DNA from: a virus
Reading direction: 5' to 3' (one strand)
Length of the DNA stretch: 64,000 nt
Virus record (IMG/VR): IMGVR_UViG_3300043632_000006
Coordinates: 1-64,000 of that record
Part shown: piece by piece, positions 20,456-36,999 of the stretch
How positions within the stretch are numbered: position 1 is the stretch's first letter
Layout: each line of letters begins with the position of its first letter
Translations under genes and position numbers: made by a program
Notes under the pieces: generated by a model
Seen by the model: the letters and a program-made list of their open reading frames with translations, nothing else
Databases searched by the model: none
What the model was told of the DNA's origin: nothing

Positions 20456-20543
20456 GTGGCTGAACCGAAAAGATTCCTTGCACCTACACGACGCTATGTG
20501 GCATGCTCTCCGCAACCAGACCAGCGTCCACGAACGGGCGTAG

Positions 20544-22481: not shown

Positions 22482-22502
22482 TAGCCGGTAGCAGTCGCCT
22501 GG

Positions 22503-22536
22503 GGCGGGGTTTCCGGTTCATTCCGGAGGCCCCGCC
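22503..22536 (+). terminator. Stem-loop terminator after capsid gene
   Basis: GGCGGGGTTTCCGG ttcatt CCGGAGGCCCCGCC, 14-bp stem (2 G-U), 6-nt loop, 21 nt after the stop; no strong T-tract. Confidence 0.55.
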
Positions 22537-22602
22537 TTGCGCTATCCGCATCACGCTTGTCCCGCTTCTCATCGACGCCGTGGCGCCTACGGCCAGCGCC
22601 GC

Positions 22603-23691
22603 ATGAGCGTCCAAGGGGTGGGCGAGACGGTCGTGCCCGACGAGAAGCCCCCCGGCCTCCCGGGCGCGGCCGGTCTCCGTGTCTCGTTCCTCGGCAACTT
22701 CCAGCCTGGTTTCGAGCCCGGGCCGACGCACCCCACGCCTTGGTCAACCGAGAGTCACCTGGCACTGTCCCTGGAGTCGCTCGGCTGCACGGTGCAGCGG
22801 CTCCAGGAGGGCGAGGTGCGGGCCGTGGACGTGGCCGAACGGGCGCGAGACTTCGGGGCCAAATTGCTGGTCTGGGTACAGACGTACGGCTTGGCGGTCA
22901 CGGGAGGCACCTCGGAGGAGCGTCACGGCTTCGTCTCGGACCTCCGCGCCTCGGGCATCCCGACCCTCTCCTACCATCTCGACAAGTGGTGGGACGTGGC
23001 CGACGGCAGGGCGGATCGCATCCCCACGGAGGCCTTCTTTCGGACGGATCTTTTCTGTACCGCCGACGAGGGCGGAGGGCGCTGGCAGGAGCTCGGCATC
23101 AACGCCGTCTGGTGCCCGCCGGCCATCTACCACGGCGAGGCGGTCACGGGCGCGCTTCGTCCCGAGTACCAGACCCCCATCGCCTTCGTCGGCTCCTGGC
23201 GGGGTCACTACCACCCGGAGTGGACGCACCGGGCCGATCTCGTCTCCCACCTCCAGCGCCGCTGGGGCCGGGAGACGGGCTTCTGGCCGAAAGGACACCA
23301 GCAGATCCGGGGCCGCGTACTCTCCGACCTCTACGCGTCGGCCAAGGTCGTCGTGGGCGATTCGTTCATGACTTCCGGAAGTCGGGCGTTCCACAGTGAC
23401 AGAATTCCGGAAACCCTTGGAAGGGGCGCATTCCTTTTGCACCCCTTCAACGAGGGGCTCGAGGATCTCTACCAGGACGGGGTTCACCTCCGCTACTGGC
23501 CGCTCGGGGACTGGGCCGAGCTCGACCGGCTCATCGCCTACTACCTCCAGCACGACGACGAACGGCGACGGATCGCCGCAGCGGGGCAGGCTCACGTCTT
23601 GGAGCATCACACCTATGCCCAGCGGCTGGAGTGGGTTGTACCGATGGCCATCGCGGCGCACACGAGGGATCGAACGGAGGTACCGGCATGA
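22603..23691 (+). CDS. CgeB-like glycosyltransferase (Glyco_trans_1_2-type C-terminus)
   Basis: 362 aa from ATG 22603; ..SDRIPETLGRGAFLLHPFNEGLEDLYQDGVHLRYW..RRRIAAAGQAHVLEHHTYAQR. Confidence 0.55.
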   Translation: MSVQGVGETVVPDEKPPGLPGAAGLRVSFLGNFQPGFEPGPTHPTPWSTESHLALSLESLGCTVQRLQEGEVRAVDVAERARDFGAKLLVWVQTYGLAVTGGTSEERHGFVSDLRASGIPTLSYHLDKWWDVADGRADRIPTEAFFRTDLFCTADEGGGRWQELGINAVWCPPAIYHGEAVTGALRPEYQTPIAFVGSWRGHYHPEWTHRADLVSHLQRRWGRETGFWPKGHQQIRGRVLSDLYASAKVVVGDSFMTSGSRAFHSDRIPETLGRGAFLLHPFNEGLEDLYQDGVHLRYWPLGDWAELDRLIAYYLQHDDERRRIAAAGQAHVLEHHTYAQRLEWVVPMAIAAHTRDRTEVPA

Positions 23692-23906
23692 TCAAGATCG
23701 CCCCGCCGATTCCAGGACTGGAGGGTTCGGTAGGACCGTTCCCAGCCCAGTATTCCGAGCTCCACGTCTACGCCCGAGACGTTCACTCTGGCGCTGGCAA
23801 CTGTGTCTGCGGCAAGAGACTCGGGGCCAAAGTACACGCCCAAGCCGCCCCCGGTGTTCCCGTCCCTGATCGGCTGCGACGAACCGGGGAGGTTCCAAGC
23901 CTATGA
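23688..23906 (+). CDS. Hypothetical protein (72 aa)
   Basis: ATGA overlaps at both ends. Confidence 0.45.
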   Translation: MIKIAPPIPGLEGSVGPFPAQYSELHVYARDVHSGAGNCVCGKRLGAKVHAQAAPGVPVPDRLRRTGEVPSL

Positions 23907-24550
23907 GCACCGCCCTTGCCTACGGTGTCGAAGCGGAGCGCGCCTACTGGGACGCTGCCGCCGCTGGCGATGGGCGAGCGGAGCTGTTCTCCGTCCCCGG
24001 CATCGAGGGCTGGGATGCGGGGGTGGAAGCCTGCCTCGACCAGATCATCCCGGCCTTGGCGCCAATCCTGTTGACAGCCAAGGCCACCATTCTCGACCTT
24101 GGGTGCGGCATCGGCCGGCTCACGCTCCCCTTGGCCCGGGCCTTCCAGGCCGTAACTTTCATCGGTCTTGACCTCTCGCCGAACATGGTCACGACGGCGC
24201 GCACCTCGGCCAAGCAACACGGTCAGCGCAACGTCCGGTTCCTGACCGGAGACGGTCGGACGCTGCCCAAGACGCTGCCACGGCTCGCCGGGGCGTTCTC
24301 CGTGCTCACCTTCCAGCACGTCCCGCTTGAGGCGCAGGAGGGCTACGTCAAGGCCCTGAGCGCCAAGCTCGAGCCGGGAGGGGCGCTCTGCCTCCAGTTC
24401 GTCATCACGGAGGTTGACCACTTCCTCTCCCACGGCGTCTCCCCCGGCACGGTGGCCGGGTGGTGCGACACCGCTGGGCTCTCCGTGACCGCCATCGACG
24501 CCGGAGTGATTGACGAGTCGTGGGCATGGCTCAGGGCGGTGAAGCCGTGA
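23903..24550 (+). CDS. Class I SAM-dependent methyltransferase
   Basis: 215 aa; motif I ATILDLGCGIGRL, FIGLDLSPNM, LEPGGALCL. Confidence 0.75.
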   Translation: MSTALAYGVEAERAYWDAAAAGDGRAELFSVPGIEGWDAGVEACLDQIIPALAPILLTAKATILDLGCGIGRLTLPLARAFQAVTFIGLDLSPNMVTTARTSAKQHGQRNVRFLTGDGRTLPKTLPRLAGAFSVLTFQHVPLEAQEGYVKALSAKLEPGGALCLQFVITEVDHFLSHGVSPGTVAGWCDTAGLSVTAIDAGVIDESWAWLRAVKP

Positions 24551-24759
24551 ACGAGTTCGTGGCCGACGCCAACTGGGAGACATCAGCAGATTGGGCTGCG
24601 CTTATGGAGGCAATGCAGGCGGGCTATCTCAAATGCGACGAGTGCGGGCGTGACCCGCTTTGCATTGCGACAACGCCGCTTGGCCTCAAAGCACTGTGTA
24701 GCGAGCATGTCAGCCGGTCCTCGCACGTTCGGAAGGTTTCCGGGGAAGGGCTCACATGA
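24547..24759 (+). CDS. Hypothetical protein (70 aa) with CxxC
   Basis: GTGA overlap; KCDECGRDPLC. Confidence 0.45.
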   Translation: MNEFVADANWETSADWAALMEAMQAGYLKCDECGRDPLCIATTPLGLKALCSEHVSRSSHVRKVSGEGLT

Positions 24760-25592
24760 AGGCGACTGCGCACCGCAACGACATGCGGGCATGGCCTGAG
24801 ATCGCCTGCCAGCGGGGGCACGAGACGCACGAGACGAAGCTGGCTGAGGTCATGCTGGCGGGCCAGAGCGGCTACAGGGACTACCCGCCGATCCCGGCCC
24901 GCATCGCCCGACGCTTCGAGATGATGGTCTTCAACTGGCGCTCCTACCCGGTCGGGGAGTCCTACTGCCCCGGCTGCGACGCCGTCTCGGAGACGATCGA
25001 CCTCGTAGGCATCTGGGAGCCGCGGGAGACGATCCTCGCCCTGACCGTCTTCGAGAGCGCCCCGGGCGGATCGGTGTTCCTCGACCTCGGCGCACAGGTC
25101 GGCTGGTTCTCCCTGCTGGCGGCCAGCGCCGGGCTCGACACGATCTCCGTGGACGCCGATGCGGAGCCGCTGCGGCTGCTCTCCGAGTCCGCGAAGCGTA
25201 ACGACTGGCACGGGATGGTGCATCCCTGGCAGATGCGGATCGACGCCGAGACGCCTGTCCTGCCGGTGGCCGACTACCGCCTCGCCAAGCTGGATCTGGA
25301 GGGCGCGGAGTTCGATGGCATCCGGATCCTCCGGCCGTCCATCGAGGCGGGTTTGGTGGACCACATTCTCATGGAGGTTTCGCCGGTCTTCGCTGACGGC
25401 TATCCGCATCTCGTCACGTCGGTCATGGAGGCTGGCTACAGCGCCTACCTGTTGCCGCCGAAGGCCCTGCCGCCTCACCGGCTGGACGACCCCGAGCGGG
25501 ACCTGACGCCGCTCACCGGGGACGTAGAGGCGGCCGTGGCGTCGTGGCATCAGGAAATGCTGTGGTTCAAGCGGGACGGTGCCTCGTGGTGA
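24756..25592 (+). CDS. FkbM-family methyltransferase
   Basis: 278 aa; VFLDLGAQVGWFS and AKLDLEGAEFDGI. Confidence 0.65.
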   Translation: MKATAHRNDMRAWPEIACQRGHETHETKLAEVMLAGQSGYRDYPPIPARIARRFEMMVFNWRSYPVGESYCPGCDAVSETIDLVGIWEPRETILALTVFESAPGGSVFLDLGAQVGWFSLLAASAGLDTISVDADAEPLRLLSESAKRNDWHGMVHPWQMRIDAETPVLPVADYRLAKLDLEGAEFDGIRILRPSIEAGLVDHILMEVSPVFADGYPHLVTSVMEAGYSAYLLPPKALPPHRLDDPERDLTPLTGDVEAAVASWHQEMLWFKRDGASW

Positions 25593-26296
25593 CCTTCGCC
25601 CCCGGCCTGATCTGCGACCTGTGGAAACTCTGGCTACCCGACTTCCGGGTGGCCTTTCACCAGGAGCGCCCGGACTGGGAGCGGGGGCGGCTGGAGTCTG
25701 CCCACGAGCGCCTCAAGCCCGGCATGCGGGTCTGGGACATAGGAGCCGAGCACGGCGATTTCAGTGCGCTCTACCGTTCCTGGGGGGCCGATGTGGTTCT
25801 CGTGGAGCCGTCCCCGCCGTACTGGCCGTGCGCTCGTAGAACCTTCGAGGCCAACGGCTTCGACCCGCCCTCGGCATGGTTCAACGGGTTTGCTGCGGAT
25901 ACGACCCGCTGGCGCTCCGGTGACTTCGGGACGGACGGCTGGCCGTGGTGCTCCGAGGGCCTGGTTGTGGCCGACTACGGCTTCCGCCATCTGGCGCAGG
26001 ATCTGGAGACACCCCGCATCACACTTGACGCCCTGGCTGACCTGACCGCACCTCCCGATGCCCTCATGATCGACGTGGAAGGCGCTGAGCATGCCGTCCT
26101 CTCCGGGGCTCGCCGCGTCCTGGCCTCTGGCGACGTCCTGGTGTGGGTGTCGGTCCATGAGCCCACGATGCTGGACTGGTATGGGCGCACGCTGAACAAC
26201 CTCCATGCCCTCATGGCGAGCATCGGCTACACCGGGGAGCTCCTGCCAGGACACGGAGAAGCGGAGACGTTCTGGCTCTATGAGCGTGCGGCATGA
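25586..26296 (+). CDS. FkbM-family methyltransferase (second copy)
   Basis: about 236 aa from GTG 25586/25589; VWDIGAEHGDFS and LMIDVEGAEHAVL. Confidence 0.65.
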   Translation: MVTFAPGLICDLWKLWLPDFRVAFHQERPDWERGRLESAHERLKPGMRVWDIGAEHGDFSALYRSWGADVVLVEPSPPYWPCARRTFEANGFDPPSAWFNGFAADTTRWRSGDFGTDGWPWCSEGLVVADYGFRHLAQDLETPRITLDALADLTAPPDALMIDVEGAEHAVLSGARRVLASGDVLVWVSVHEPTMLDWYGRTLNNLHALMASIGYTGELLPGHGEAETFWLYERAA

Positions 26297-26526
26297 CCAC
26301 GGCCTACGGGGTGCCGGACCATCTTGCACGTACCAGCGGAAGTCGGTACCGACTCGTCGCTGTGCACAATCCGGCGCGTGGCCCACACCGTAGATCCGAC
26401 ACCCCGGCGGGGGGAAGACCGTCATCAACCCGTAGCCCCGCTTTTCGGAGCGCCCCTCGCCTTGCCATCGGCATACTCACGCCCCGCGTGGACAGTTTAC
26501 GTCCAGGCCAGGAGCAGACGCCATGA
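26293..26526 (+). CDS. Questionable 77-aa Arg-rich ORF
   Basis: ATGA overlaps at both ends argue for translation; composition is weak. Confidence 0.25.
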   Translation: MTTAYGVPDHLARTSGSRYRLVAVHNPARGPHRRSDTPAGGRPSSTRSPAFRSAPRLAIGILTPRVDSLRPGQEQTP

Positions 26527-28244
26527 ACGTTCCCGTCCTGTGGATTTCCCGCCACGCCGACATCCTCTCGCGCGGGTACGCCGACCAAGGATTTTGCGAG
26601 GCGATGCTCGCTGGCGAAGTGTGGGGCCCGCCTGGGGCCTTCATCTTCGAGCACTACGTAGACGTGGGGCGACCGGGAAGCATAGACGCCGATGCCTTCC
26701 CGAATGTGGCTGGGGCAGTCGTCGTCCTGCCAGCCCGCCACCACGCCTCCGAGGCGGACGTCTCGTGGTTCCTGACCCAACTTGACCGGCTCTCGTGGTC
26801 CGTCGTGATCTTGGCCGGGGACGAGGAATGGAGCTTCCCCTGGGCCCGCGTGGAGCGCACTCCGACACGGCGCGTGTGGGTCATGCAGCCGCGCCCGGAG
26901 CACTCCGGGATGGACGGGCTACTCCCCGGAGGCTGGTACCCGGGAACGCGCGAGGGCATCGCCCCACACGGCGTCATGGGGGGCAGGCCGCTCGACTGGT
27001 TCTTCGGGGGCCAGGTCACGCACTCACGCCGGCAGGAGGCCGCTCACGTCCTGCGCCGGCTCATGCCCGACTTTCCGTGCCGCCTGGTCGAGACGGCTGG
27101 CTACCTCCAGGGCGTTCCGATGCCCGAGTACATGGCCTTCCTCTCGTCGGCCAAGGTCGTCCCCTGCCCGTCCGGTCCCTGCACCGTGGACACCGCACGC
27201 CCCTTGGAGGCGCTGGAGGCGGCCTGTGTTCCCGTGGTGGACATGGTGACGCCGCGCGGCGAGGACTATGACTACTGGGCGCTGTGCTTCGGGGAGGACT
27301 GCCCGCTGCCCCGCATCCGCAACTGGGAGGACTTCCCGGCGATCCTGCGGCGGGAACTGGCTGACTGGCCCGCCAACGCGAACCGCCTGAGCGCGTGGTG
27401 GCAGGGCTGGAAGCGCTCCATCGTCCACCGGCTCCACGACGATATCCGGGCCGTGAGCGGGACGACTCTCGAGCCGGTGGGACCCGACGACCTCCTGACG
27501 GTCATCGTCACGACTTCCCCGGTGCCCGGTCATCCCTCGACGGCGGATCTGGAGACGACGATCGCTGGCATCCGGGAGCAGCTGCCCCGCGCCGAGATCA
27601 TCCTTGCCGCCGACGGCGTCCGGCCCGAGCAGGAGGACTCCCGAGCCGCCTATGACGAGTACCTGCGCCGTGTCTGCTGGCTGGCCAACTTCGAGTGGCG
27701 CAACGTCGTCCCCTTCCTCGCCTCCGAGTGGCTCGCCCAGGCCGAGCTCACCCGGCAGGCGCTGGCGCTGGTCCGCACTCCCCTGGTTCTCTTCGTGGAG
27801 CACGACAGACCTCCGATGGGAGTCATCGACTGGCCGGGGATCTGCCAGCTTGTGCGCTCGGGCCAGGTCAACGCGCTCCGCCTGCACGCGGAAAGTGAGA
27901 TCCATCACGACCACATGCACCTTATGGTCGATGCCAACGCGCTGCAGGTCGATGGCGTGCCGTACCGCCGCACGATGGCCTGGTGGCAACATCCCCACGT
28001 CATCCGCACCGTCGTCTACCGGATTTTCCTGGAGGATTACTTCGATCCCCGAGAGCGGACGATGATCGAGGACCGGCTCTACCAGGCCGCTGAAAACGAC
28101 TGGTTCGACAACGGCCCGCCTGCTTGGAGCCGTTGGAGACTGGCAATCTACTCGCCGCCGGGGAACATGAAGCGGTCCACGCACCTCGATAGCCGAGGCG
28201 CTGAGCCGAAGTGGCCGAACGTGTCCGCGGAGGTGTCGGCGTGA
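26523..28244 (+). CDS. Large two-domain putative glycosyltransferase
   Basis: 573 aa; C-terminal half begins LLTVIVTTSPVPGHPST (GT-A-like), with LFVEHDRP acidic motif; N-terminal half unassigned. Confidence 0.45.
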   Translation: MNVPVLWISRHADILSRGYADQGFCEAMLAGEVWGPPGAFIFEHYVDVGRPGSIDADAFPNVAGAVVVLPARHHASEADVSWFLTQLDRLSWSVVILAGDEEWSFPWARVERTPTRRVWVMQPRPEHSGMDGLLPGGWYPGTREGIAPHGVMGGRPLDWFFGGQVTHSRRQEAAHVLRRLMPDFPCRLVETAGYLQGVPMPEYMAFLSSAKVVPCPSGPCTVDTARPLEALEAACVPVVDMVTPRGEDYDYWALCFGEDCPLPRIRNWEDFPAILRRELADWPANANRLSAWWQGWKRSIVHRLHDDIRAVSGTTLEPVGPDDLLTVIVTTSPVPGHPSTADLETTIAGIREQLPRAEIILAADGVRPEQEDSRAAYDEYLRRVCWLANFEWRNVVPFLASEWLAQAELTRQALALVRTPLVLFVEHDRPPMGVIDWPGICQLVRSGQVNALRLHAESEIHHDHMHLMVDANALQVDGVPYRRTMAWWQHPHVIRTVVYRIFLEDYFDPRERTMIEDRLYQAAENDWFDNGPPAWSRWRLAIYSPPGNMKRSTHLDSRGAEPKWPNVSAEVSA

Positions 28245-28546
28245 GGACCTACGAGCAACTAGGAGAACGATCCGGCGTCCTCCCCTGCATTGATGGCACT
28301 TGGATGGCGGTGTGTCCCCATTGCCGACAGATCGTGATCTGGCTGGAACAGTCTCAGGCAAGGGTGCGGGATGTGCTGGCCGTTCACGTTTGCAACCCAC
28401 CTCCTGACTGGCACGACGCTCTGACATCCTGCACCCAGGCGATGGGCTGGCTGTCTGTGATGTGTCGCCATCTACGCCCTGAGGACCGTGGCGCTCTTGC
28501 CGACGAACTTGAGCAACGCTTGCAGGAACTCCGGGGCCCAAGATGA
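28241..28546 (+). CDS. Hypothetical protein (101 aa)
   Basis: GTGA overlap; CPHCRQ. Confidence 0.5.
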   Translation: MRTYEQLGERSGVLPCIDGTWMAVCPHCRQIVIWLEQSQARVRDVLAVHVCNPPPDWHDALTSCTQAMGWLSVMCRHLRPEDRGALADELEQRLQELRGPR

Positions 28547-29625
28547 CCGTCCGTACCGCGCTTCTCGTGCGCTCCGACAACCGGGGATTGGGCCGGCAGA
28601 CCTTCGACTACTGGAAGCATCTCCAGCCAGCCAAGACGCTCCACATCCGCATGGCATCCTCCGTTGGCTCGTGGACGCCCTACCAGGAGCATCCCGAGTG
28701 GTACCCCGGCGTCCGTAGCGCCGACTTCAACGGGCACTCAGGGACAGTCGATGAGGATGCCTACCGCTGGCTCCTGACCGACACGGATGTCCTGCTGACC
28801 GCCGAGACCGCCTACGACCACCGGGCATGGGGCTGGGCGCGCGAGATGGGCGTCCGGACGGTACTGGTTGGCAACCCGGAGTTCCTGGGCCCCGACAAGG
28901 TCGGCACGGGGGGCCCCGACCAGATCGTGCTGCCGTCCCCTTGGCGGGTCGGAACGATCCCCGGTGCCGCCCACCTTCCACAGCCCGTGGACCGGGACGT
29001 GTTCGCCTTCTCGCCTCGGCCGCTCAACGACCCGCCACGCTTCCTCCATGTGGTGGGGAACCGGGCCACCCGGGACCGCGCCGGCACGGACATCGTGCTT
29101 GACTGCCTGCGCTTCCTGCGGCACCGGGTGAACCTCACCATCCGCTGCCAGGGCCCGCTCTCCGCTCCCCAGGAACTGCTGCTGCGGGGCCTGCGGCGCC
29201 ACCAGATCCCGAACGTCATGCGGGCCGATATCGAGGACCCCCGGGAGTTGTACGAGGGCTTCGATGTCCTCTTGGCTCCCCGGCGCTACGGGGGCCTCTC
29301 GTTGCCGCTCAATGAGGCTGCTTCCTGCGGCTTGGCGATCCTCGCTGGCGACCGGGAACCGGAATCGTCCATCCTTCCGCCCGAGGCGCTGATGCCTGTG
29401 GTGAACGGCCGGGAGACGAGCTTCCAGGGCGGGATGTTCCGGCTGGAGGATGTCCGACCGCAGGACTTGGCGGCGGGCATCGACTGGCTCGTGGAGGATC
29501 CCGGCGCGGTCGCACGACTCTCCGAGGCATCAAATCGATACGCAGAGAGCATCGCCTGGCCGGTGCTTCTCCCCCGGTGGCTTGACCTTCTCGAGCGCGT
29601 GGCGAGCTTGGCGGTGGTGCCATGA
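28543..29625 (+). CDS. GT-B (GT4-like) glycosyltransferase
   Basis: 360 aa; ..FDVLLAPRRYGGLSLPLNEAASCGLAILAGDRE.. resembles the GT4 EX7E region. Confidence 0.6.
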   Translation: MTVRTALLVRSDNRGLGRQTFDYWKHLQPAKTLHIRMASSVGSWTPYQEHPEWYPGVRSADFNGHSGTVDEDAYRWLLTDTDVLLTAETAYDHRAWGWAREMGVRTVLVGNPEFLGPDKVGTGGPDQIVLPSPWRVGTIPGAAHLPQPVDRDVFAFSPRPLNDPPRFLHVVGNRATRDRAGTDIVLDCLRFLRHRVNLTIRCQGPLSAPQELLLRGLRRHQIPNVMRADIEDPRELYEGFDVLLAPRRYGGLSLPLNEAASCGLAILAGDREPESSILPPEALMPVVNGRETSFQGGMFRLEDVRPQDLAAGIDWLVEDPGAVARLSEASNRYAESIAWPVLLPRWLDLLERVASLAVVP

Positions 29626-30629
29626 TTGATGCCTACGCGGGCCGGAGTCACTATTTGGCTCACCTCCTGCCTGTGTGGCGTGCCCTACCGCCTGAGCGTC
29701 GCGGGACGCTGTACGTCGGTGGTCGGCTTGTGGGCAACCCGCAGGCCACCGCGGCCGGGGCGGTGCCGAAGAACATGACGCTGCTCTCCCGCGGGCCCCG
29801 CGTCCTCGTGGCCTCGCAGCTGGACTACCAGACGGTCACGACGCACCGCCGAGTGGTCTATATGAACCACGGCAGCGGTCAATCCTACAGCGGCGACAGC
29901 GATCCGGCTGTCTCGCAGGCATCCTCGTATGCGGGGGGCGACAACCAGGACCGCACGGACCTGTTCCTCGTTCCCGGCCCGCATCCCGCGCAACGCTGCA
30001 AGGCCCGATATCCCCACATCCCTGTGGCGGAGATCGGCTGCCCCGCCCTCGACCGCTGGCTCATGGACTCGCCCTATGACGGTGGCGCCGATCCTCCCGT
30101 CGTGGCTCTCGCCTGGCACTGGGAGAACCAACTCTGCCCGGAGACCCGCTCGGCGCTCCCCCACTTCCGATCGGCGCTGCCGGACCTAACAAGCCGCTAC
30201 CTCGTCATCGGCCACGGCCATCCCCGGGCGCGCGATCTCGCCCAGAGCGTCTACGAGCCGCTCGGGATCCCCTGGGTGGACTACGACACCGTCATGACGA
30301 TGGCTTCGGTCTTGGTGGTGGACAACTCCAGCATCGGCTTCGAGTTCGCCGCCACGGAACGGCCGGTGGTCTGGATGACCCCACCCTGGTACCGGCGAGA
30401 CGCAATGCACGGGTTGCGCTTCTGGGATGAGGCTCAGGTACAGGTTGAGAGTTCCGACGACCTGCTGGGGGCCGTGGCCGACGCTCTCGACCATCCGCCC
30501 ACGGCCGATCTCTCCGGCGTCTACACGCACCTCGACGGCCACTCCGCCGAGCATGCCGTAGCGGCCATCCTCGCCCTTGACGAAACGGAGGCTGGAGCCA
30601 TGAGACCTCTTGCGGGGGTGACGCCTTGA
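29622..30629 (+). CDS. TagB/TagF-like (glycerophosphotransferase-type) or GT-B-like transferase
   Basis: 335 aa; ..MASVLVVDNSSIGFEFAATERPVVWMTPPWYRRD.. resembles the C-terminal pattern of CDP-glycerol glycerophosphotransferases; tentative. Confidence 0.35.
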   Translation: MIDAYAGRSHYLAHLLPVWRALPPERRGTLYVGGRLVGNPQATAAGAVPKNMTLLSRGPRVLVASQLDYQTVTTHRRVVYMNHGSGQSYSGDSDPAVSQASSYAGGDNQDRTDLFLVPGPHPAQRCKARYPHIPVAEIGCPALDRWLMDSPYDGGADPPVVALAWHWENQLCPETRSALPHFRSALPDLTSRYLVIGHGHPRARDLAQSVYEPLGIPWVDYDTVMTMASVLVVDNSSIGFEFAATERPVVWMTPPWYRRDAMHGLRFWDEAQVQVESSDDLLGAVADALDHPPTADLSGVYTHLDGHSAEHAVAAILALDETEAGAMRPLAGVTP

Positions 30630-31486
30630 CCGTCCACGGGCCCCGGGTCCCCATCGAACCTCCGGAGATCCTGCCCCCCACCCAGAGCCTCGTGGCAGCT
30701 GCATTCAGCCCGTCCGCGCAGGAGATGGCCGAGATGGGCAACCACTGGGGGCTGGGCATGGAGTTCCGGTCCATCCTCTGTACGGGCAACCCGACCGCCT
30801 ATGACATCTGCGCCCCGGCCAGCAAGCCCGAGGGGACGCGCTCCGTGCTCCAGGATGTGGACCCCTTCGCCGTGGTCATCACGGACACCTGCTCCACCTT
30901 CGGGTTCAAGTACAACGACTATGTGGGGCGCGTGCTCCGCAAGCACAAGGCGCAGGAGTCATACGTCATCGCCCACGAGTTCTGGGCAGGCGCCGTCGCC
31001 CCCGCCTCGTTCCATCTTGCCGCGGGCGGAGCGGTCACCGACATCAACCCCGGGCAGACGGTTATCGCTCCTGAGGCGCTGGCGCTGCTCGACCAGGAGC
31101 TCGGGGAATGTCTGCACGGCGCCCGTGGAATGATCTTCTGCACGGCCCGGTGCTTCCTCAACCTCTTCCTGAGCGTCGGGCTCTACCGACCCCCCGGCTC
31201 CCGCCAGACCTTCACCCACATGGACAACCTCATCGTTCCCGACGCCGGCTTCCCGGGGACGGATCCGAATGGCGGGGTGGAGTCATCGACCATCGAATGG
31301 ATGTACGCCACCGCCCCGGCCAAGGTCTACCGCAGCCAGCCCAAGGTCTTTCCGAACGACGGGGACCCGATGTGGCAGGCCGTGGCCCGGGATCGAAATG
31401 ACGTGACGTTCCGTGCTGAATCACTTGCTGCTGTCGTAGTGGATCCGTGCTGCCTGCTGGGAATTCAGGTGTCTCTGCCCGCTTAA
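30626..31486 (+). CDS. Second, HK97-family-like capsid protein (no delta domain)
   Basis: 286 aa, TTGA overlap. ..ESYVIAHEFWAGAV.., ..ALALLDQELGECLHGARGMIFCTARCF.., ..NLIVPDAGFPG.., ..NDVTFRAESLAAVVVDPC.. follow the spacing of HK97-type major capsid proteins. Confidence 0.45.
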   Translation: MTVHGPRVPIEPPEILPPTQSLVAAAFSPSAQEMAEMGNHWGLGMEFRSILCTGNPTAYDICAPASKPEGTRSVLQDVDPFAVVITDTCSTFGFKYNDYVGRVLRKHKAQESYVIAHEFWAGAVAPASFHLAAGGAVTDINPGQTVIAPEALALLDQELGECLHGARGMIFCTARCFLNLFLSVGLYRPPGSRQTFTHMDNLIVPDAGFPGTDPNGGVESSTIEWMYATAPAKVYRSQPKVFPNDGDPMWQAVARDRNDVTFRAESLAAVVVDPCCLLGIQVSLPA

Positions 31487-31513
31487 CCGAACGAGAAAGG
31501 AAGGGAGAAGAAC

Positions 31514-32167
31514 ATGGCGAACCTAACGTGCCAAACGGCCTCGTTCGGTGCCTGTGGCATCCGCGTGTGTGCGCTTGGCCCAACTGGTATCCCGACTCCG
31601 GGACCGAACAACCTGTACATCACGGGCGCTCCGATCGAGGTCAAGGCGACGTGGCAGGTCAAGGCAGGAAACCGCTTCGAGCAGCGCAACGCCTGCGGCG
31701 GGGTCTGCACGGTCGTCCAGCAGCAGGACGACATCCAGGGCCTCACGCTCACACTGCAACTCTGCCAGCTCGACGCTGAGTTGATGTGGATTCTCTCCAC
31801 CGGCACTCTGATCCAAGTCGGCGGGAATTCGCTCGGCCACATGGTGCCGCCACTCGGCCAGCAGCAGGCGAATGGCGTGAGCATGGATGTGTGGACCCAG
31901 AATCAGAAAGGTGGCTCTCAGGACCCGAACTATCCCTACATCCATTGGGTGTATCCAAGGGTGACGTGGAGGGCCGGCGACGACACGTTTAACGAGGGAA
32001 TTCTCAACGTCCCTTACACCGGAGTCTGCTACGAGAACCCGAACTTCGAAGACGGCCCCTTCGAGGAATGGAACGTTCCTGGGGGGATTACGTCAATCAG
32101 GGCTTGGCAACTTGAGACCTCCCTCCCGGCGCCGCTGTGCGGATTGCAAACACTTCCCCACTCCTGA
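31514..32167 (+). CDS. Virion structural-like protein, possible major tail (tube) protein
   Basis: 217 aa, strong RBS aaggaagggaga; no other tube candidate between tail terminator and chaperones; assignment by exclusion and vague pattern memory. Confidence 0.3.
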   Translation: MANLTCQTASFGACGIRVCALGPTGIPTPGPNNLYITGAPIEVKATWQVKAGNRFEQRNACGGVCTVVQQQDDIQGLTLTLQLCQLDAELMWILSTGTLIQVGGNSLGHMVPPLGQQQANGVSMDVWTQNQKGGSQDPNYPYIHWVYPRVTWRAGDDTFNEGILNVPYTGVCYENPNFEDGPFEEWNVPGGITSIRAWQLETSLPAPLCGLQTLPHS

Positions 32168-32208
32168 TCCCTTGACCAACTGACAGGTCGGAACCGAAAG
32201 GTCACCAC

Positions 32209-32526
32209 ATGGCAGATATCGCACTAGGGCAGAGATACAAGCTGCTCCGCAGGATCGGCAACGACGTCAACGAGGACGGCTCCACGGGCGATCCGCTGCA
32301 TCCCGGCTGGGTGGGAACCGTTATCGGCTTCTCGCCGGCCGACGAACTGGGGGCCTCGCACCATGACGGGGACTGCTGGGTGCTGGCCTTCCCGGTTCCG
32401 GCCATCGCCTACGGGGAGGACGGCCAGCCGTTCATGGGGCAGGTCTCCCGCAACTACCCCGTCACGGCGGCGGAACTCAACGATCCGACCCACTACGAGC
32501 CCGTGGCTGAGGAGGTGACGACGTAA
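32209..32526 (+). CDS. Hypothetical protein (105 aa)
   Basis: ATG with RBS gaaagg. Confidence 0.55.
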   Translation: MADIALGQRYKLLRRIGNDVNEDGSTGDPLHPGWVGTVIGFSPADELGASHHDGDCWVLAFPVPAIAYGEDGQPFMGQVSRNYPVTAAELNDPTHYEPVAEEVTT

Positions 32527-32939
32527 TGGCAGGCGAATTCAGCAGGCTCGGCAAGTCCAGAGGTCTCGACGCCGCCGACGGGCGGGTGAGCGTCTCCACC
32601 TACACGCCGTTCATCGCTCTCAACTCCACGGCTCCGACCGACAGCACCCTCGGAGGCGAGTACACGGCAACCGGTTACGCACGGCAGTCCGTGGCCTTCT
32701 CGGCACCCACCGCGGCCGACCCGCCCGTCACATCGAACTCTGGCGGGTTGACCTTCGGCCCGTTCACCGCGAACACGGGGGCCACGCTCAGCTACGCCTC
32801 GCTCATGGACGGCGTCTCGGGTGGCACCGCGACGGCCAATATGTATGCCTGGTGGACCTTGACAACGCCCAAGACGCCCGCGAACGGGGACTCGGCAACC
32901 GTTGCCGTGGGAGCGATCACCTTGAGCTATACGGTCTGA
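32526..32939 (+). CDS. Hypothetical, possibly virion-associated protein (137 aa)
   Basis: Thr/Ser/Ala-rich, beta-rich looking; TAATG overlap. Confidence 0.5.
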   Translation: MAGEFSRLGKSRGLDAADGRVSVSTYTPFIALNSTAPTDSTLGGEYTATGYARQSVAFSAPTAADPPVTSNSGGLTFGPFTANTGATLSYASLMDGVSGGTATANMYAWWTLTTPKTPANGDSATVAVGAITLSYTV

Positions 32940-33172
32940 TGGCTACGTACTCCGTGGCTGTCGCCGGTGAGGTGGAGAACGCCCAGGTCAAGCTGGATAT
33001 GTTCGCCCATACCTTGGAGGACGGCGAGGCTCTCGTGACGCCCATCCCTCGGGGCTTCCCGATGCAGGCCGTGCCCGAGGTGGCGGCACGGGTCGCCTTC
33101 ATGCTGCGCCAGTACGTTGACCTCTACGCGCCTAAGGAACCCGAGCCCGAGAAGGAACCTGCCCAAACGTGA
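32939..33172 (+). CDS. Hypothetical protein (77 aa)
   Basis: TGATG overlap; in frame of track ORF 32852-33172. Confidence 0.5.
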   Translation: MATYSVAVAGEVENAQVKLDMFAHTLEDGEALVTPIPRGFPMQAVPEVAARVAFMLRQYVDLYAPKEPEPEKEPAQT

Positions 33173-33789
33173 GCGAGGCCGACGTGGTTGACAAGCGGGC
33201 ATCCGTGCTGGCGTGGTTCCGGCAGGGGGCCGAGGGCACTCAGAAGATCGCGGAGGACATCGCCCGTTACCGCACCATCGTGGCGAGCGTCCAGCCTGCC
33301 GTTGTGGTTGAGAGCGGCACCGGGTCGGGGCACTTCGCCCTCTTCCTGTCGCTTCTCGGCTGCGGGGTCGTCACGGTGGACATCGACCCTTGGCCGAGCT
33401 ACGACACGGTCATGGGGTGGCGGGACAATGTCATCCAGGTCGTAGGGAACAGCATTGACCCCGGGATCGTGGAGGCGGTCAGAGAGGCCGTAGGGGATGC
33501 AAGCCCTGTCGTGGTGTCGCTGGACTCGGACCACTCCGCTTCGCACGTCAGGGCCGAGATGGAGGCCTATAGCGGTCTCGTGACACCGGGCTCCTACATG
33601 GTGGTGGAGGACTCGGTCCTCGACTGGATGCCACCGAACGCGCCGGCCCGGGCACGCTACCGCGGGACGCCGATGGAGGCCGTCGAGGACTTCCTGACCG
33701 CTCATCGTGACTGGCAAGTTGACCGGGATCTGGAGGGCATGTTCGCAGCGACACAGAATCCGGGTGGCTGGCTTCGGAGATGGGCATGA
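33169..33789 (+). CDS. CmcI-family (rhamnosyl/cephalosporin-hydroxylase-like) O-methyltransferase
   Basis: 206 aa; VVVESGTGSGHFALFL, VVSLDSDHSASHVRAEMEAY, GSYMVVEDS. Confidence 0.6.
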   Translation: MSEADVVDKRASVLAWFRQGAEGTQKIAEDIARYRTIVASVQPAVVVESGTGSGHFALFLSLLGCGVVTVDIDPWPSYDTVMGWRDNVIQVVGNSIDPGIVEAVREAVGDASPVVVSLDSDHSASHVRAEMEAYSGLVTPGSYMVVEDSVLDWMPPNAPARARYRGTPMEAVEDFLTAHRDWQVDRDLEGMFAATQNPGGWLRRWA

Positions 33790-34115
33790 GCGAGCCCGTC
33801 CCCATCGTGAGGACAGATCTCCCTCTCTGCGGGGCGGAGACCTTCTATGGCGACGCTCACCTTCCGATCTCCTGCGGGTTCAAGGCCGGTCATGCCGGGC
33901 CTCACGCGTGGGAGAGTCTTCCGTCTCTCACTGGCCCCCGGCCTGAGCCTCATGGCAACGACCTAGCCACTTTGTTGGAGTTCGTCAAAGGGCTCGGCGA
34001 CCCGTGGGATACCGGCGAGGGAGTGAACGTTTGCCGGTACTGCCAGAGCGCGTGGCGACACGCTGACGACTGCGCATGGGTTGCACTGGCAAACTACGCC
34101 GGGTTGGAAACGTGA
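33786..34115 (+). CDS. Hypothetical Cys-containing protein (109 aa)
   Basis: ATGA overlap. Confidence 0.5.
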   Translation: MSEPVPIVRTDLPLCGAETFYGDAHLPISCGFKAGHAGPHAWESLPSLTGPRPEPHGNDLATLLEFVKGLGDPWDTGEGVNVCRYCQSAWRHADDCAWVALANYAGLET

Positions 34116-34741
34116 GCGAGAAGCCGCGGGTCGTCATCGCCACGCCGCTCTACGGGCATCCCTCGCCGTGGTTCATGGTGGCCTTTGAGCGCCTCCGGGT
34201 CGGTGTCGTGGCTTCTGGCGTTGAGGCTGAATGGAAGTTCACCACCATCCCCTATATCGATCAGGCGAGGAATGATCTGGTGCGACAGGCGTTGGCGTAC
34301 GACGCCACGCATATTTTTTGGGTTGATCACGATGTGACCTGCCGACCTGACGCTGTAGCAAAACTCCTAACTCACAACCTTCCTGTTGTGGGGGGGATGT
34401 ACCACTCCAAAGACAAGCCATATGGGCCGGTGGCGTTCGGGCTGGACCCCTTCGAAATGTACCAGGAGATCCCGCCCACAGAGAGCCTGCATCTCGTGGG
34501 TGGCCTCGGGATGGGCGCGACGCTCGTCAAGGCCGATGTCTACCGGCTCATGAAGATGCAGTACGAGGACGAGCGCTGGTATCAGGTCTCCATACAGCCC
34601 GACATCGGTGAGGACGTCCACTTTGCCATGCGTCTCCAGGAGATGGCTGTGCCAGCCTTCTTAGACCCCACCGTGCAGTGTGGGCATATCAGAGACTACG
34701 AGGTGACGATCCTCGACTACCTCGCAGCACGAAGGGGGTGA
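34112..34741 (+). CDS. GT-A (family 2-like) glycosyltransferase
   Basis: 209 aa from GTG 34112; PRVVIATPLYGHP.., ..THIFWVDHDV.., ..GEDVHFAMRL.. Confidence 0.5.
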   Translation: MSEKPRVVIATPLYGHPSPWFMVAFERLRVGVVASGVEAEWKFTTIPYIDQARNDLVRQALAYDATHIFWVDHDVTCRPDAVAKLLTHNLPVVGGMYHSKDKPYGPVAFGLDPFEMYQEIPPTESLHLVGGLGMGATLVKADVYRLMKMQYEDERWYQVSIQPDIGEDVHFAMRLQEMAVPAFLDPTVQCGHIRDYEVTILDYLAARRG

Positions 34742-34747
34742 GCGCCT

Positions 34748-35824
34748 GTGGCGGTCACTCTCGTCCAGAAAAAGGGGGCTCAGAGCGCCGGGAACACCAG
34801 CGGCCTCGTGGTCACGCTTGACGCCCCACCCACACCCGGAAACCTCCTCGTGGCAGCTTGCAACTCGGATGCCACGGTCTCCACGCCGGCCGGGTTCACC
34901 CTCGCCGTGTCGGCTGTCAGCGGACAGGGGCTCTACATCTTCTACCGAGTGGTGCAGGCTGGCGACGGGTCCAGCGTGACCTTCGCGCCCAGCGTGGCAG
35001 ACTCGTGCGCGGGTGGAGTAATCGAATACTCGGGCCTCACCGCCACACCGCTCGACCAGACCGCCTCCAATACGATCAACTCGTCAGCTTCAAGCCTCGC
35101 CACGGGAACCACGCCCACGACCACTCAGGCCAGCGAGCTCGTTATCGTGGTCGTGGGTCCCCACGCCGGCAACAACCACCCGTGGGTGCTCTCGTCATGG
35201 TCCGCGGGCTACACCTCGCAGATCGAGGAGCCGAACGGACTGGCAACCGTCGGCTCCGCATCCTCGGCCTGCCACATCGGCGATCAGATCGTCGGGGCAA
35301 CAGGCACCTACTCGGCAACCGGCACTTGGTCCCCGGCCTCGAGCGATGCAGGGGCTGCCATTGCCACATTCAAGGCTGTGGCGGGCACCGTTCACGTCCT
35401 CGCTGCCATTGGCCTCGCTGCCACGTCGGGCTCGGCAGCGCTCAACGTGACCATCGTCCTTGCGGCAACCGGCTTGGCTGCCACCACGGGCTCCGCCGCC
35501 CTCAGCGTGAACATCACACTCTCTGCCACGGGACTCGCTGCCACGGCCGGGACGATGGATCTGGTGGTCCGACGGGGGCTGTCCTCCGATGCGCTGGCTG
35601 CCACCACAGGGTCCGCGAGCATGACCATGAAGTGGTCATTGGCCGCTGCCGGGCTGGCCTCGACCAGTGGCGGCATGAACGTAGGGTTACCGGTCCCGAT
35701 GGCCGCGGCAGGACTCGCTGCCACCACGGGATCCTTTGCGTTCGCCTCAGCGACTCCATTCACTCCGGGCCCGACCAAGATTGCTCTCGGCGTTTCGGGC
35801 TGGCCGACGAAGGCAGGGATATGA
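34748..35824 (+). CDS. Structural-like protein: beta-rich N-domain plus six 19-20-aa LAATGLAATxGS repeats
   Basis: 358 aa; N-domain resembles modules of the 1004-aa tail protein; repeats at aa 217-334. Confidence 0.65.
   Translation: MAVTLVQKKGAQSAGNTSGLVVTLDAPPTPGNLLVAACNSDATVSTPAGFTLAVSAVSGQGLYIFYRVVQAGDGSSVTFAPSVADSCAGGVIEYSGLTATPLDQTASNTINSSASSLATGTTPTTTQASELVIVVVGPHAGNNHPWVLSSWSAGYTSQIEEPNGLATVGSASSACHIGDQIVGATGTYSATGTWSPASSDAGAAIATFKAVAGTVHVLAAIGLAATSGSAALNVTIVLAATGLAATTGSAALSVNITLSATGLAATAGTMDLVVRRGLSSDALAATTGSASMTMKWSLAAAGLASTSGGMNVGLPVPMAAAGLAATTGSFAFASATPFTPGPTKIALGVSGWPTKAGI
35396..35749 (+). repeat. Six tandem 57-60-nt coding repeats
   Basis: VLAAIGLAATSGSAALNVTI / VLAATGLAATTGSAALSVNI / TLSATGLAATAGTMDLVVR / RGLSSDALAATTGSASMTMK / WSLAAAGLASTSGGMNVGL / PVPMAAAGLAATTGSFAFAS. 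Confidence 0.85.
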
Positions 35825-36999
35825 CAACTCCCGCCATCGCATCCACGGTCTCCGTCCGCTCCGGGGACATCCTCGTGATCCCCGCTGTCCTCGCCAACCC
35901 CGATGGATCCGTGGTGAACCTCACTGGGAAGACGGTTGCGTTCCAGATGTACCCGAAGGCGGGAGGGACGCTGATCGTCAATGGGGTCGCCGCAGTCACG
36001 AACCCCGCAGGCGGAACGGTCACCTACACGGGGACGGCCACGGACACAGCGCTGGCCGGTCAGTTCACCGGCTATTTCATGGTGACGACTCCCGGTGCCG
36101 CGCCGGTTGCCTACCCGGCCGACGGGATCACGGTGGCCATCTACCCCGTCGTCGGTGCTATCACGGGGCCCGGTGCAGGGCCGTGCTTCCCCTGGACAAC
36201 TGCCGATGCGGTCCGGGGGGCGGTGGCGGGTATCGACCCTCTGGCGGACCTCACGGAGTGGATAGAGGCCGCGGGCGAGGTTCTCTATGCCCTGACGGGG
36301 CGACAGTTCAAGGGGCTCTGCCGGGCCACCATCCGCCCCGGCCACGAGTCGTGCTCGTGCGGAGGGCTCTGTGCTGCCCATGCCTTCGGCTGGCCGCTCT
36401 CGGGGGGCTTCGGGCTCTACGGCTCGGGCTGGCCGGTAGGGTTCGGCGCTTGGCTCGGTGGGACGCAGGAGGGGCCACGGAACACGCTGATCTGCGCTTC
36501 GGAGATCGACCTGGGGCACGATGCGCGGGTGGTGGAGTCCATCAAGATCGATGGGGCTGAGATCGACCCGACCACGTGGCGCCTTGATCCGCTCGGAAAG
36601 CTGGTACGTCAGCCTGACGCTAACGGCAACCAACTCGTCTGGCCGTGCTGTTCTCGAGTGGGCCCGTCAAGCGGATCCGTGGGGACCTTCGAGATCCGCT
36701 ACCTCTACGGGCAAGATCCACCGGCCTCGGTTGTGATGGCGGTGAACGTCCTAGCGGGCCAATTCTGGCTTGCATCGAACGGGTCGGGGCAGTGCAAGCT
36801 GCCCTCTCATATTCAGACAATGACGAGACAAGGTGTAACTGCGACGTTCGTAACGGACACGTCAGTGTTCCTCGCCAAGGGCTTCACCGGGCTGCCTCTG
36901 GTGGATCAGGTCATCGCTGCATTCAATCCGAACCACCTGACTCGGCGTGCCCGGGTCATCAGCATCGACGTTGAGCCGCACAGGCGGATGACCCCTTGA
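35821..36999 (+). CDS. Head-to-tail adaptor with N-terminal Ig-like extension
   Basis: 392 aa from ATG 35821. N-terminal beta-sandwich-like ~110 aa, then ..CFPWTTADAV.. and ..CKLPSHIQTMTRQGVTATFVTD..GFTGLPLVDQVIAAFNP.., as in actinophage adaptor proteins. Confidence 0.5.
   Translation: MTTPAIASTVSVRSGDILVIPAVLANPDGSVVNLTGKTVAFQMYPKAGGTLIVNGVAAVTNPAGGTVTYTGTATDTALAGQFTGYFMVTTPGAAPVAYPADGITVAIYPVVGAITGPGAGPCFPWTTADAVRGAVAGIDPLADLTEWIEAAGEVLYALTGRQFKGLCRATIRPGHESCSCGGLCAAHAFGWPLSGGFGLYGSGWPVGFGAWLGGTQEGPRNTLICASEIDLGHDARVVESIKIDGAEIDPTTWRLDPLGKLVRQPDANGNQLVWPCCSRVGPSSGSVGTFEIRYLYGQDPPASVVMAVNVLAGQFWLASNGSGQCKLPSHIQTMTRQGVTATFVTDTSVFLAKGFTGLPLVDQVIAAFNPNHLTRRARVISIDVEPHRRMTP

Follow-up and report, generated by a model that had tools for sequence, protein, structure and literature searches.

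A 64,000-nucleotide (nt) window of viral DNA (positions 1 to 64,000 of IMG/VR virus record IMGVR_UViG_3300043632_000006) carries, at 22603-34741, nine enzyme genes with ten catalytic domains, namely five glycosyltransferase (GT) proteins with six GT-type domains between them and four methyltransferases (MTs). The phage probably uses these enzymes, late in infection and in the cytoplasm, to build a complex methylated glycan on its own virion proteins. This is the best reading because the GT/MT set is coupled to the late structural operon, because the enzymes are soluble, because components for flipping or lipid-carrier transfer are missing from the region, and because there are precedents among other viruses. 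A preliminary description of this DNA had proposed a complex methylated virion glycan from the same region; the soluble enzyme set and its coupling to the structural genes support that proposal in part.

The region lies, by its gene content, in the morphogenesis operon of a siphophage. The + strand carries an uninterrupted gene array from 20544 to 36999, as judged by third-position GC analysis, and the enzyme genes lie on the structural-gene strand. Stop/start overlaps of 4 nt join an open reading frame (ORF) at 24520 to the first FkbM-like MT gene (FkbM1); the second FkbM gene (FkbM2) through an ORF at 26293 to the gene for a bidomain GT of 573 amino acids (aa), referred to here as GT573; an ORF at 28211 through the GT4-type GT and TagF-like genes to the phrog_779 gene at 30626, a member of the virion module; and the 77-aa gene at 32939, also of the virion module, to the CmcI-type MT gene. 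The preliminary description had seen a single island of about 12 kb. A multi-enzyme GT/MT set does lie within the structural module, but it falls into two blocks, 22603-30629 and 33169-34741, with five virion-module genes between them, and the nine enzymes occupy about 9.6 kb. In the phages DSL-LC01 and Atuin, which lack the cassette, the genes for the major head protein (MCP), a protein of about 290 aa, the tail protein and the adaptor are contiguous, which argues that the enzyme genes are an insertion. The window also encodes minor tail proteins and an endolysin (PHROG and Pfam matches). The host is most likely an actinobacterium, since the head protein resembles capsid proteins of Arthrobacter, Gordonia and Microbacterium phages and of DSL-LC01.

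A scan with a 19-residue window suggested no transmembrane helix in any of the nine enzymes, and family scans found no flippase, polyprenyl-phosphate GT or GtrA/B-like protein in the region. A consensus scan of the + strand from 18000 to 37500 found no sigma-70-like promoter, and the sole strong hairpin among the two intergenic gaps that were folded lies directly after the capsid gene. This hairpin has a predicted stability of -43.4 kcal/mol (z -4.34), which none of 200 shuffled sequences equaled; the other gap, 211 nt at 23692-23902, is ordinary in structure (z 0.19). The terminator that the preliminary description placed after the capsid gene is thus represented by a real 16-bp stem (dG -43), but one without a U-tract, and a consensus terminator scan overlooked it for that reason. 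The features of the window are collected in Table 1.

Table 1. Genes and other features of the window (numbering as in the window; lengths are those of the products).
Feature	Position	Strand	Evidence and remarks
Large terminase	9499-11088		PHROG/Pfam scan
Portal	11700-14306		PHROG/Pfam scan
Large head-module protein	16066-18354		phrog_859
Major head protein (capsid "hexamer"-type), 645 aa	20544..22481	+	phrog_777 9e-65; upstream boundary of the region
GC-rich 16-bp stem-loop	22501..22538	+	directly 3' of capsid stop; terminator- or attenuator-like; no U-tract
GT-B glycosyltransferase, Glyco_trans_1_2 (CgeB-like)	22603..23691	+	PF13524 1.3e-20; phrog_28745 GT 3.6e-25; core member
Class I SAM MT, generic	23903..24550	+	Methyltransf_25 5.2e-19
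Small ORF, 79 aa, CxxC...CxxH (putative)	24520..24759	+	GC3 0.68; stop overlaps FkbM1 start by 4 nt
FkbM-like MT 1 (weak)	24756..25592	+	phrog_8156 2.5e-5; TIGR01444 3.8e-4, 20.9 bits, below 37.7 cutoff
FkbM MT 2	25544..26296	+	PF05050 4.3e-9; TIGR01444 5.7e-13, 49.5 bits (cutoff 37.7)
Bidomain GT (GT573), 573 aa	26523..28244	+	N-terminal GT-B (exostosin/GT47-like), C-terminal GT-A; core signature gene
Small Cys-rich ORF, 111 aa, CPHC motif (probably real)	28211..28546	+	4-nt coupled to GT4 gene
GT4-type (GT-B) GT	28543..29625	+	Glyco_trans_1_4 1.9e-7; Glycos_transf_1 1.1e-5; core member
TagF-family-like GT-B protein, 335 aa	29622..30629	+	PF04464 7.5e-6; stop overlaps start of gene at 30626
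Virion-module protein, 286 aa	30626..31486	+	phrog_779 8e-20 (function unknown in PHROG)
Major tail (tube) protein, 217 aa	31514..32167	+	phrog_792 2.2e-14
Small virion-module gene, 105 aa	32209-32526	+	order conserved in relatives
Gp80/head-protein-like, 137 aa	32526-32939	+	PF23140 Gp80 2.7e-16; phrog_240 head protein 5.9e-8
Small virion-module gene, 77 aa	32939-33172	+	stop couples to CmcI gene
CmcI/rhamnosyl-O-MT family MT	33169..33789	+	PF04989 1.9e-38, profile positions 16-205 of 206; accessory block
Small Cys-rich ORF, 111 aa, CxxC...HxxxC (putative)	33780..34115	+	
Small GT-A	34076..34741	+	probable start GTG 34112, 4-nt overlap with upstream stop; accessory block
Ala/Thr/Ser/Gly-rich protein, 358 aa	34748..35824	+	tandem repeats of about 20 aa; between GT-A and adaptor genes
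Head-tail adaptor	35821..36999	+	phrog_783 6e-46; downstream boundary of the region
Tape measure	38649-42599		PHROG/Pfam scan

Family scans and structure models recovered every GT and MT gene listed in the preliminary description, the signal of FkbM1 being weak. The Glyco_trans_1_2 GT is 78-80% identical to its counterparts in the close relatives L004 and L005 (related contigs are given L numbers) and 35-41% identical to those in L007, L008, L009, L016, L020, L022, L025 and L026, with a ratio of nonsynonymous to synonymous substitution rates (dN/dS) of 0.12-0.17. The adjoining class I MT, an S-adenosylmethionine (SAM)-dependent enzyme, matches no specific NCBIfam equivalog and is 64-78% identical in L004 and L005 (dN/dS 0.15-0.29); L007 and L009 have a Glyco_trans_1_2 GT that is fused to an MT domain. 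FkbM1 has a stretch that, read by eye, resembles SAM motif I (FLDLGAQVGW), and shows 70-94% identity in L004, L005 and L012 (dN/dS 0.08-0.22). FkbM2 is 81% identical in L012 and 31-43% identical in L007, L008, L020, L022, L025 and L026, and is absent from L004 and L005.

The GT4-type enzyme is 66-90% identical among close relatives and 29-36% identical in distant cassettes. The homologous proteins P0007-P0011, of about 930 aa, combine it with the bidomain GT, a fusion that links the two enzymes in function. The CmcI-type MT has about 20 close homologs, at least five of them on contigs equal in length to contigs with TagF-like homologs, and its co-occurrence with the TagF-like gene was confirmed for L012 and L013; its dN/dS is 0.21. 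It matches the rhamnosyl O-MT model NF045824 at 3.6e-19, with 69 bits against an equivalog cutoff of 400, and so falls outside that equivalog. The small GT-A enzyme matches phrog_1574 (1e-17) and the GT family phrog_12406 (2e-5), has a weak Anp1 match at residues 62-105 and contains WVDHDV, a candidate DxD-type motif picked out by eye; it also matches cyanophage proteins. Its identity reaches 97% in L012 (10618-11247) and an estimated 85% or so, by eye, in a 213-aa ORF of L013 (10895-11536), compared with 53-90% for neighboring genes, and its GC content is 0.59 against about 0.67 around it. The high identity together with the lower GC suggests that related phages have exchanged this gene recently.

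The largest of the enzymes, GT573, has only a weak, sub-threshold RXYLT1_C match by sequence, and sequence searches found no relative of solved structure. An AlphaFold (AF2) model built on an alignment of 54 homologs has a mean predicted local distance difference test score (pLDDT) of 94.1 and a predicted template modeling score (pTM) of 0.93. Foldseek places human EXT1/EXT2 first, over the whole length of the model (E 1.8e-9, probability 1.0), and aligns the C-terminal half to the GT-A enzymes polypeptide GalNAc-Ts, SpsA and TarS; an invariant E426-x-D428 motif lies in the GT-A part. Like EXT1/EXT2, the GT47 + GT64 co-polymerase of heparan sulfate (PDB 7sch, 7uqy), GT573 combines in a single chain a GT-B domain and, C-terminal to it, a GT-A domain. 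Unlike them it is soluble, with no membrane anchor, and at 10-12% identity the template modeling (TM) score over the whole chain is only 0.27-0.32, from which it follows that the packing of the domains differs. Although some homologs carry PF03016 (Exostosin_GT47) and PF24785, GT573 itself has no GT64 Pfam match and falls outside PF03016 and GT64 by sequence. The model thus predicts that GT573 shares the layout of the exostosins without being a member of their family. More than 200 full-length homologs were found in 90% clusters, and at E<=1e-30 the family comprises 719 representative clusters at 50% identity, of which at least 150 span both domains. The gene evolves with a dN/dS of 0.13-0.19. 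One homolog, P0092, has 890 aa and a LAGLIDADG (PF14528) insertion that suggests an intein or a homing-endonuclease insertion. Full-length homologs also occur on contigs of Saccharibacteria and Bacteroidota metagenome-assembled genomes (L017, L023, L026), and these are either mis-binned phage DNA or a sign of hosts beyond Actinomycetota.

The match of the TagF-like protein itself to PF04464 (Glyphos_transf) scores 25.6 bits against a cutoff of 22.1 and covers the C-terminal 70 residues only. Across the family, 41 of 57 members match PF04464 (best 5.7e-13), as against 1 of 57 for Epimerase_2, and the top PDB match of the family profile is the TagF-like domain of Cps3D (6.7e-5). On these sequence matches PF04464 membership is supported, and polyol-phosphate transfer is a putative activity. 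The protein resembles TagF, TarL and Cps3D in its GT-B fold, its PF04464 membership and a C-terminal Rossmann domain that aligns to Cps3D. It differs in being much shorter, in lacking a membrane-association region and in a likeness to 2-epimerases that is at least as high. Indeed, when the AF2 model (pLDDT 94.2) was compared with known structures by Foldseek, the top 12 matches were UDP-GlcNAc 2-epimerases (TM 0.60-0.66, E 3e-9), with Cps3D 13th, TagF 21st and TarL 50th (TM 0.55-0.60, E 3e-8 and weaker), so that the fold is not closer to TagF/TarL than to other GT-B enzymes. The family profile likewise reaches epimerase 8ahe/3beo (E 0.013, 216 residues).

It is accordingly quite possible, if somewhat short of likely, that this protein is a nucleotide-sugar 2-epimerase-like or ordinary GT-B enzyme, and that the glycan has no phosphodiester. 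This estimate concerns that one component; it overlaps the other readings discussed below and is not to be added to them. The alternative gains from the finding that no gene for CDP-glycerol or CDP-ribitol synthesis was seen in the ORFs sampled. It loses from the family-wide Pfam and profile matches to TagF-type proteins, and from two invariant motifs, H83-G84 and H200-P201, of which H200 aligns to the GHH of Cps3D. The pair resembles the catalytic histidines of TagF, which we take to be H444 and H584, but a profile built from the N-terminal half, used to map the N-terminal invariant histidine onto TagF/TarL, returned chance matches only. A JGI metagenome protein, P0121, encoded on a 98.9-kb contig, is 100% identical to part of the TagF-like protein.

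Conservation in relatives extends to all nine enzymes, and their dN/dS values (0.07-0.30 against L012, L004 or L005) are equal to or below those of the MCP and the major tail protein. The enzyme genes are under purifying selection, and the same values led us to reject the idea of a decayed or non-functional island. The full gene order of the window is found in L012, including FkbM2, CmcI and GT-A, with GT573, GT4 and TagF-like protein at 85-90% identity. L004 and L005 share the genes for the MCP, Glyco_trans_1_2 GT, class I MT, FkbM1, GT573 (79-82% identity), GT4, TagF-like protein, phrog_779 protein and tube, and are without FkbM2, CmcI and GT-A; L013 retains just GT4, TagF-like protein, CmcI and GT-A. 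At 38-52% identity, L007, L008, L009, L016, L020, L022 and L026 all have the Glyco_trans_1_2 GT, GT573 and GT4, and all except L009 an FkbM homolog. Synteny with virion genes holds in L004, L005, L012 and L013, and the cassette adjoins head or tail genes in L008, L009 and L022; for L016, L020 and L026 the comparison covered the enzyme genes. A core consisting of the Glyco_trans_1_2 GT, FkbM, bidomain GT and GT4, often with the TagF-like protein, thus recurs beside virion genes in many uncultured actinophage contigs, and the accessory enzymes (second FkbM, CmcI and small GT-A) vary between relatives. The picture is one of a conserved mobile core surrounded by accessory genes that vary, a pattern also seen in surface-glycan loci.

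The TagF-like gene, which had been expected to be an unusual component, proved to be a regular one: it is present in L004, L005, L007, L009, L012, L013, L016 and L022. A further homolog (36% identity, annotated hypothetical) lies in the unrelated, uncultured Virus Rctr41k (L015, KX853513.1, 8971-9939), in the head module between a capsid-protease fusion and head-morphogenesis genes. The core cassette also extends to a cultured bacterium. Nocardia sp. NPDC049149 (L025, NZ_JBICTD010000005.1, 297301-318862) has the Glyco_trans_1_2 GT, FkbM, bidomain GT and GT4 on an 852-kb contig, and the genes that come directly downstream encode a terminase, a portal and an HK97-type head protein from another structural lineage. 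Because phage late genes adjoin the core on so long a contig of a cultured strain, this copy likely lies in a prophage. The GT573 homolog of Nocardia is split into overlapping ORFs (9962-10825 and 10636-11568), by a frameshift or as a natural split.

A phage glycosylation cassette inside an actinophage structural operon is of a kind already known. In Cluster J mycobacteriophages, an insertion of 8-10 genes separates the capsid and connector genes and encodes about five GTs together with methyltransferases and a kinase (PMC3706429). As in that insertion, which in Thibault (gp11-gp20) comprises 10 genes in 6.1 kb, the present genes form a non-structural block right after the capsid gene of a virion operon, lie between the major head and adaptor genes, and combine several GTs and SAM methyltransferases with small ORFs that have zinc-binding-like features. 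The small GT-A is furthermore a weak homolog (23% identity, E 6e-4) of the first gene of the block, the gp11-type "glycosyltransferase". Cluster J differs in its capsid family, in its Ser/Thr kinase, which has no counterpart here, in the smaller size of its block, set against nine enzymes in about 9.6 kb, and in that the set in the window is divided by five virion-module genes. To the preliminary description the present cassette looked larger than other phage glycosylation cassettes, which holds in part: its nine enzymes do make it bigger than the Cluster J insertion, but the two are of the same kind. No Cluster J match was found by tblastn for the Glyco_trans_1_2 GT, GT573, GT4, TagF-like protein or CmcI, a search in which the class I MT, FkbM1 and FkbM2 were not queried. 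Cluster J phages were rejected as close relatives: none of the 30 capsid matches listed is from a Mycobacterium phage, and a tblastn search with the MCP was empty in the Thibault locus.

Direct precedents for virion glycosylation come from other mycobacteriophages. Phage-encoded GTs are reported to glycosylate the capsid and tail-tube proteins of Che8 (F1), Corndog (O) and Myrna (C) (PMC12363180, PMC11256854), as the preliminary description had stated for some mycobacteriophages; Che8 gp110 and Corndog gp38 are the enzymes reported to be essential in their phages. GT and O-MT genes of Cluster O had also been proposed as capsid modifiers (PMC4351075). The present phage resembles these in encoding its own GTs and, in the case of Corndog, in having an O-methyltransferase and placing the genes within the structural operon. 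It differs in that the known cassettes have 2-4 enzymes. A more distant parallel is PBCV-1, which builds its capsid glycan with multidomain GTs that are soluble and cytoplasmic, a pair of rhamnose O-methyltransferases and a GT annotated as an exostosin (A064R, A061L, A075L, A111/114R), and in which antigenic variation maps to glycan genes (PMC9614988). The likeness lies in virus-encoded soluble multidomain GTs and in SAM MTs, which in PBCV-1 O-methylate terminal rhamnose; unlike the present phage, PBCV-1 infects a eukaryotic alga, makes an N-linked glycan and has genes that are dispersed and early.

In the pathway that we favor, one GT would start the glycan by transferring a sugar from a nucleotide-sugar of the host to a Ser or Thr residue in a structural protein. 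The GT4 enzyme, the Glyco_trans_1_2 GT and both active sites of the bidomain GT would then extend the chain, possibly as an alternating repeat like that made by exostosins, and the TagF-like enzyme would add a polyol-phosphate or other capping unit. The FkbM and CmcI MTs would O-methylate sugar hydroxyls, the CmcI family including rhamnose 2-O-methylases, and the particle would end up with a coat of methylated, hydrophobic glycan. Turnover of the glycan between related phages may reflect diversifying pressure on a surface structure that serves shielding, stability or adsorption. We infer which GT acts first, which protein accepts the glycan, that the MTs target sugars and what purpose the coat serves.

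Four proteins are candidates for the acceptor: the major head protein, the tail tube, the Gp80-like protein and the 358-aa protein. The last, whose gene has a 60-nt DNA tandem repeat at 35399-35544, has homologs in L005 (54% identity) and L012 (66%) and no family match in Pfam and PHROG scans; it could be a fiber or decoration protein and a glycan acceptor. The major head protein has an acidic, Pro-rich N-terminal region and is 33-39% identical by tblastn to the "major capsid hexamer protein" of the Arthrobacter, Gordonia and Microbacterium phages and of Actinomycetia phage DSL-LC01. A pattern scan of IMG/VR found no close capsid relatives, and sequence and profile searches of the PDB gave no meaningful match.

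A number of observations weigh against virion glycosylation. Neither the MCP nor the tube protein has an obvious Ser/Thr-rich tail. None of the five island GTs has a Che8 or Corndog match among the matches listed by tblastn (E<=1e-3 to 1e-5) against 50,697 deposited phage records; for the small GT-A the list held 40 of 68 records. No gene for nucleotide-sugar or CDP-polyol synthesis and no cytidylyltransferase was seen in the ORFs sampled, and the donors must therefore come from the host. The cassette of L007 follows lysin-like (peptidoglycan-binding) genes rather than head genes. To our knowledge, the characterized TagF-family enzymes and exostosins all use lipid- or polymer-linked acceptors, not protein side chains. 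Finally, the generic class I MT could methylate a protein instead of a sugar; one report indicates that methylation of tail proteins matters in mycobacteriophages (PMC13445384).

A more extreme version of virion glycosylation is that the coat consists of a long, cell-wall-like glycopolymer instead of short oligosaccharides, methylated, phosphodiester-containing and teichoic-acid-like, which would mimic or complement the actinobacterial envelope. The bidomain GT would then be a processive co-polymerase that builds a disaccharide repeat on a protein of the head or tail; the TagF-like enzyme would introduce polyol-phosphate within the chain or as its cap, and three or four O-methyltransferases would provide hydrophobicity. 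We consider this unlikely. If true, such a module would be mobile among unrelated actinophages and common in soil and freshwater viromes, and absent from the cultured phage collections searched.

A different target is proposed by the idea that the enzymes remodel a host envelope polymer (teichoic-acid-like, arabinogalactan- or lipoarabinomannan-like, or capsular) during infection or lysogeny, for superinfection exclusion or to stop progeny from re-adsorbing to debris. The PF04464 enzymes TagF, TarL and Cps3D do build wall and capsule polymers, bidomain GTs of the exostosin type co-polymerize polysaccharides, Nocardia has the core cassette in an integrated prophage, and the peptidoglycan-binding or lysin-like neighbors in L007 would fit as well. 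On the other side, the membrane and lipid-carrier components sought in the region, from a transmembrane segment to a flippase, GtrA/B-like protein and polyprenyl-phosphate GT, were not found; translational coupling links the enzyme genes inside the late structural operon and runs on into a virion-module gene; linkage to head and tail genes persists across lineages; and in Nocardia the cassette opens the late region, directly followed by the terminase gene. A role in the host envelope, although the main rival, thus seems to us improbable.

The product might also be a methylated oligo- or polysaccharide that stays free of the virion, in the cytoplasm or secreted, and helps in replication or lysis. 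Actinobacteria have cytoplasmic polymethylated polysaccharides, and four MTs with soluble GTs, one of them a possible polymerase-type bidomain enzyme, in a cassette with no recognizable protein-acceptor determinant, would suit such a product. The persistent linkage is to virion genes, not to metabolic or early genes, however, and the composition of the cassette turns over in close relatives, as expected for an exposed surface structure; with no known phage precedent besides, we regard a free polysaccharide as very unlikely. The notion that the enzymes modify phage DNA bases with sugars can be given almost no credence, even though phage GTs classically glucosylate DNA (PMC9614988) and a ParB-like/DNA methyltransferase gene lies upstream, since neither a base-hydroxymethylase nor any related gene turned up in the island and the cassette belongs to the morphogenesis rather than the replication module. 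In addition, the FkbM, CmcI, GT4, exostosin-like and TagF-like families act on sugars or natural products and are not known to act on DNA.

What is new in the cassette of the present phage is the composition of its enzyme set. The island has no nucleotide-level relative among the 50,697 deposited phage genomes (megablast, blastn), and three of the six enzymes queried against them by tblastn, GT573, GT4 and CmcI, had no match. The exostosin-like bidomain GT family is new, being abundant in metagenomes and absent from the deposited phages searched; so too are a TagF-family protein as a regular cassette member and a CmcI-type MT with neither a PHROG family nor a deposited-phage match, in a set with ten catalytic domains in total. 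The open-access literature searched does not describe any enzyme of exostosin-like or TagF-like type from the structural module of a phage. Only recently was virion glycosylation shown, for a handful of mycobacteriophages in which it changes recognition by antibodies, and the present cassette has other and more enzymes. With 719 GT573 clusters as against none in the 50,697 deposited phages, phage glycan coats may therefore be commoner and chemically richer in uncultured actinophages than the isolates would lead one to expect. The region also offers soluble exostosin-like and TagF-like enzyme candidates, which may act on protein-bound glycans, and the prophage in the cultured Nocardia strain makes the question of virion glycosylation tractable.

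Among the virion-module genes between the two enzyme blocks, the tube gene, preceded by a good ribosome-binding site (GGAAGGGAG), agrees with the tube-like gene that the preliminary description had seen embedded there. The same description called the 286-aa gene capsid-like, and this could not be confirmed. Its product has no detectable similarity to the MCP (BLASTP; hhalign against the MCP alignment, probability 0.6%), no PDB match (phmmer and profile) and no Pfam match among nine family members scanned, and with all sequence and profile comparisons negative the label "capsid-like/pentamer" was dropped. What it has is a conserved position in the virion module: it is 98% identical in L012 and 28% identical to the gene after the MCP in DSL-LC01, and in relatives without the island a gene for about 290 aa immediately follows the head gene (a homolog in DSL-LC01, a size-matched gene in Atuin). 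The genes for the 105-aa, 137-aa and 77-aa proteins keep the same order in L005 and L012. The adaptor gene, whose start overlaps the stop of the 358-aa gene by 4 nt, encodes about 120 additional residues at the N terminus, with a weak BppU_N match.

The small coupled ORFs that had been noted between the enzyme genes fared unevenly. The ORF at 28211-28546 has a homolog, residues 7-59 being 51% identical to a 57-aa CPxC ORF of L012 that lies there between the GT4 and TagF-like genes, though it has no Pfam or PHROG match. The putative ORF at 24520-24759 has neither a family match nor a homolog in L004, L005 or L012, where an unrelated small ORF fills the slot, and that at 33780-34115 is absent from L012, where GT-A directly follows CmcI. 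The reading frame at 26293-26526 was rejected as a gene and is probably a wrong-frame ORF (GC3, the third-position GC content, is 0.63, the product is Pro/Arg-rich and no homolog was found).

Several further observations concern the relatives and the rest of the window. In L012 a 1.2-kb insert (3920-5149) separates the bidomain GT and GT4 genes; its 409-aa ORF is Ser/Arg/Pro-rich with the look of a nonsense translation, and the insert may be non-coding or a mobile element. L008 encodes (8572-9213) a 213-aa protein with a GTGRSGTLW motif that is sulfotransferase-like by eye, and in L013 a pectate-lyase-like protein (11548-12546) follows just after the CmcI/GT-A pair. Pfam matches to 2',5'-RNA-ligase/2H-phosphoesterase, unexpected in a head module, were obtained for the large gene upstream of the head protein in L005 (1-1366) and L008 (2771-4501); its counterpart in the window, the large head-module gene, was scanned against PHROGs only. 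The window has a GC content of 63-68%, and scans of its whole length found no tRNA genes and no Rfam matches. Upstream of the terminase gene lie genes for a metallopeptidase (PF18894, 694-1251), a DHH phosphoesterase (phrog_4771, 1568-2377) and the ParB-like/DNA methyltransferase mentioned above (phrog_498, 7863-8822).

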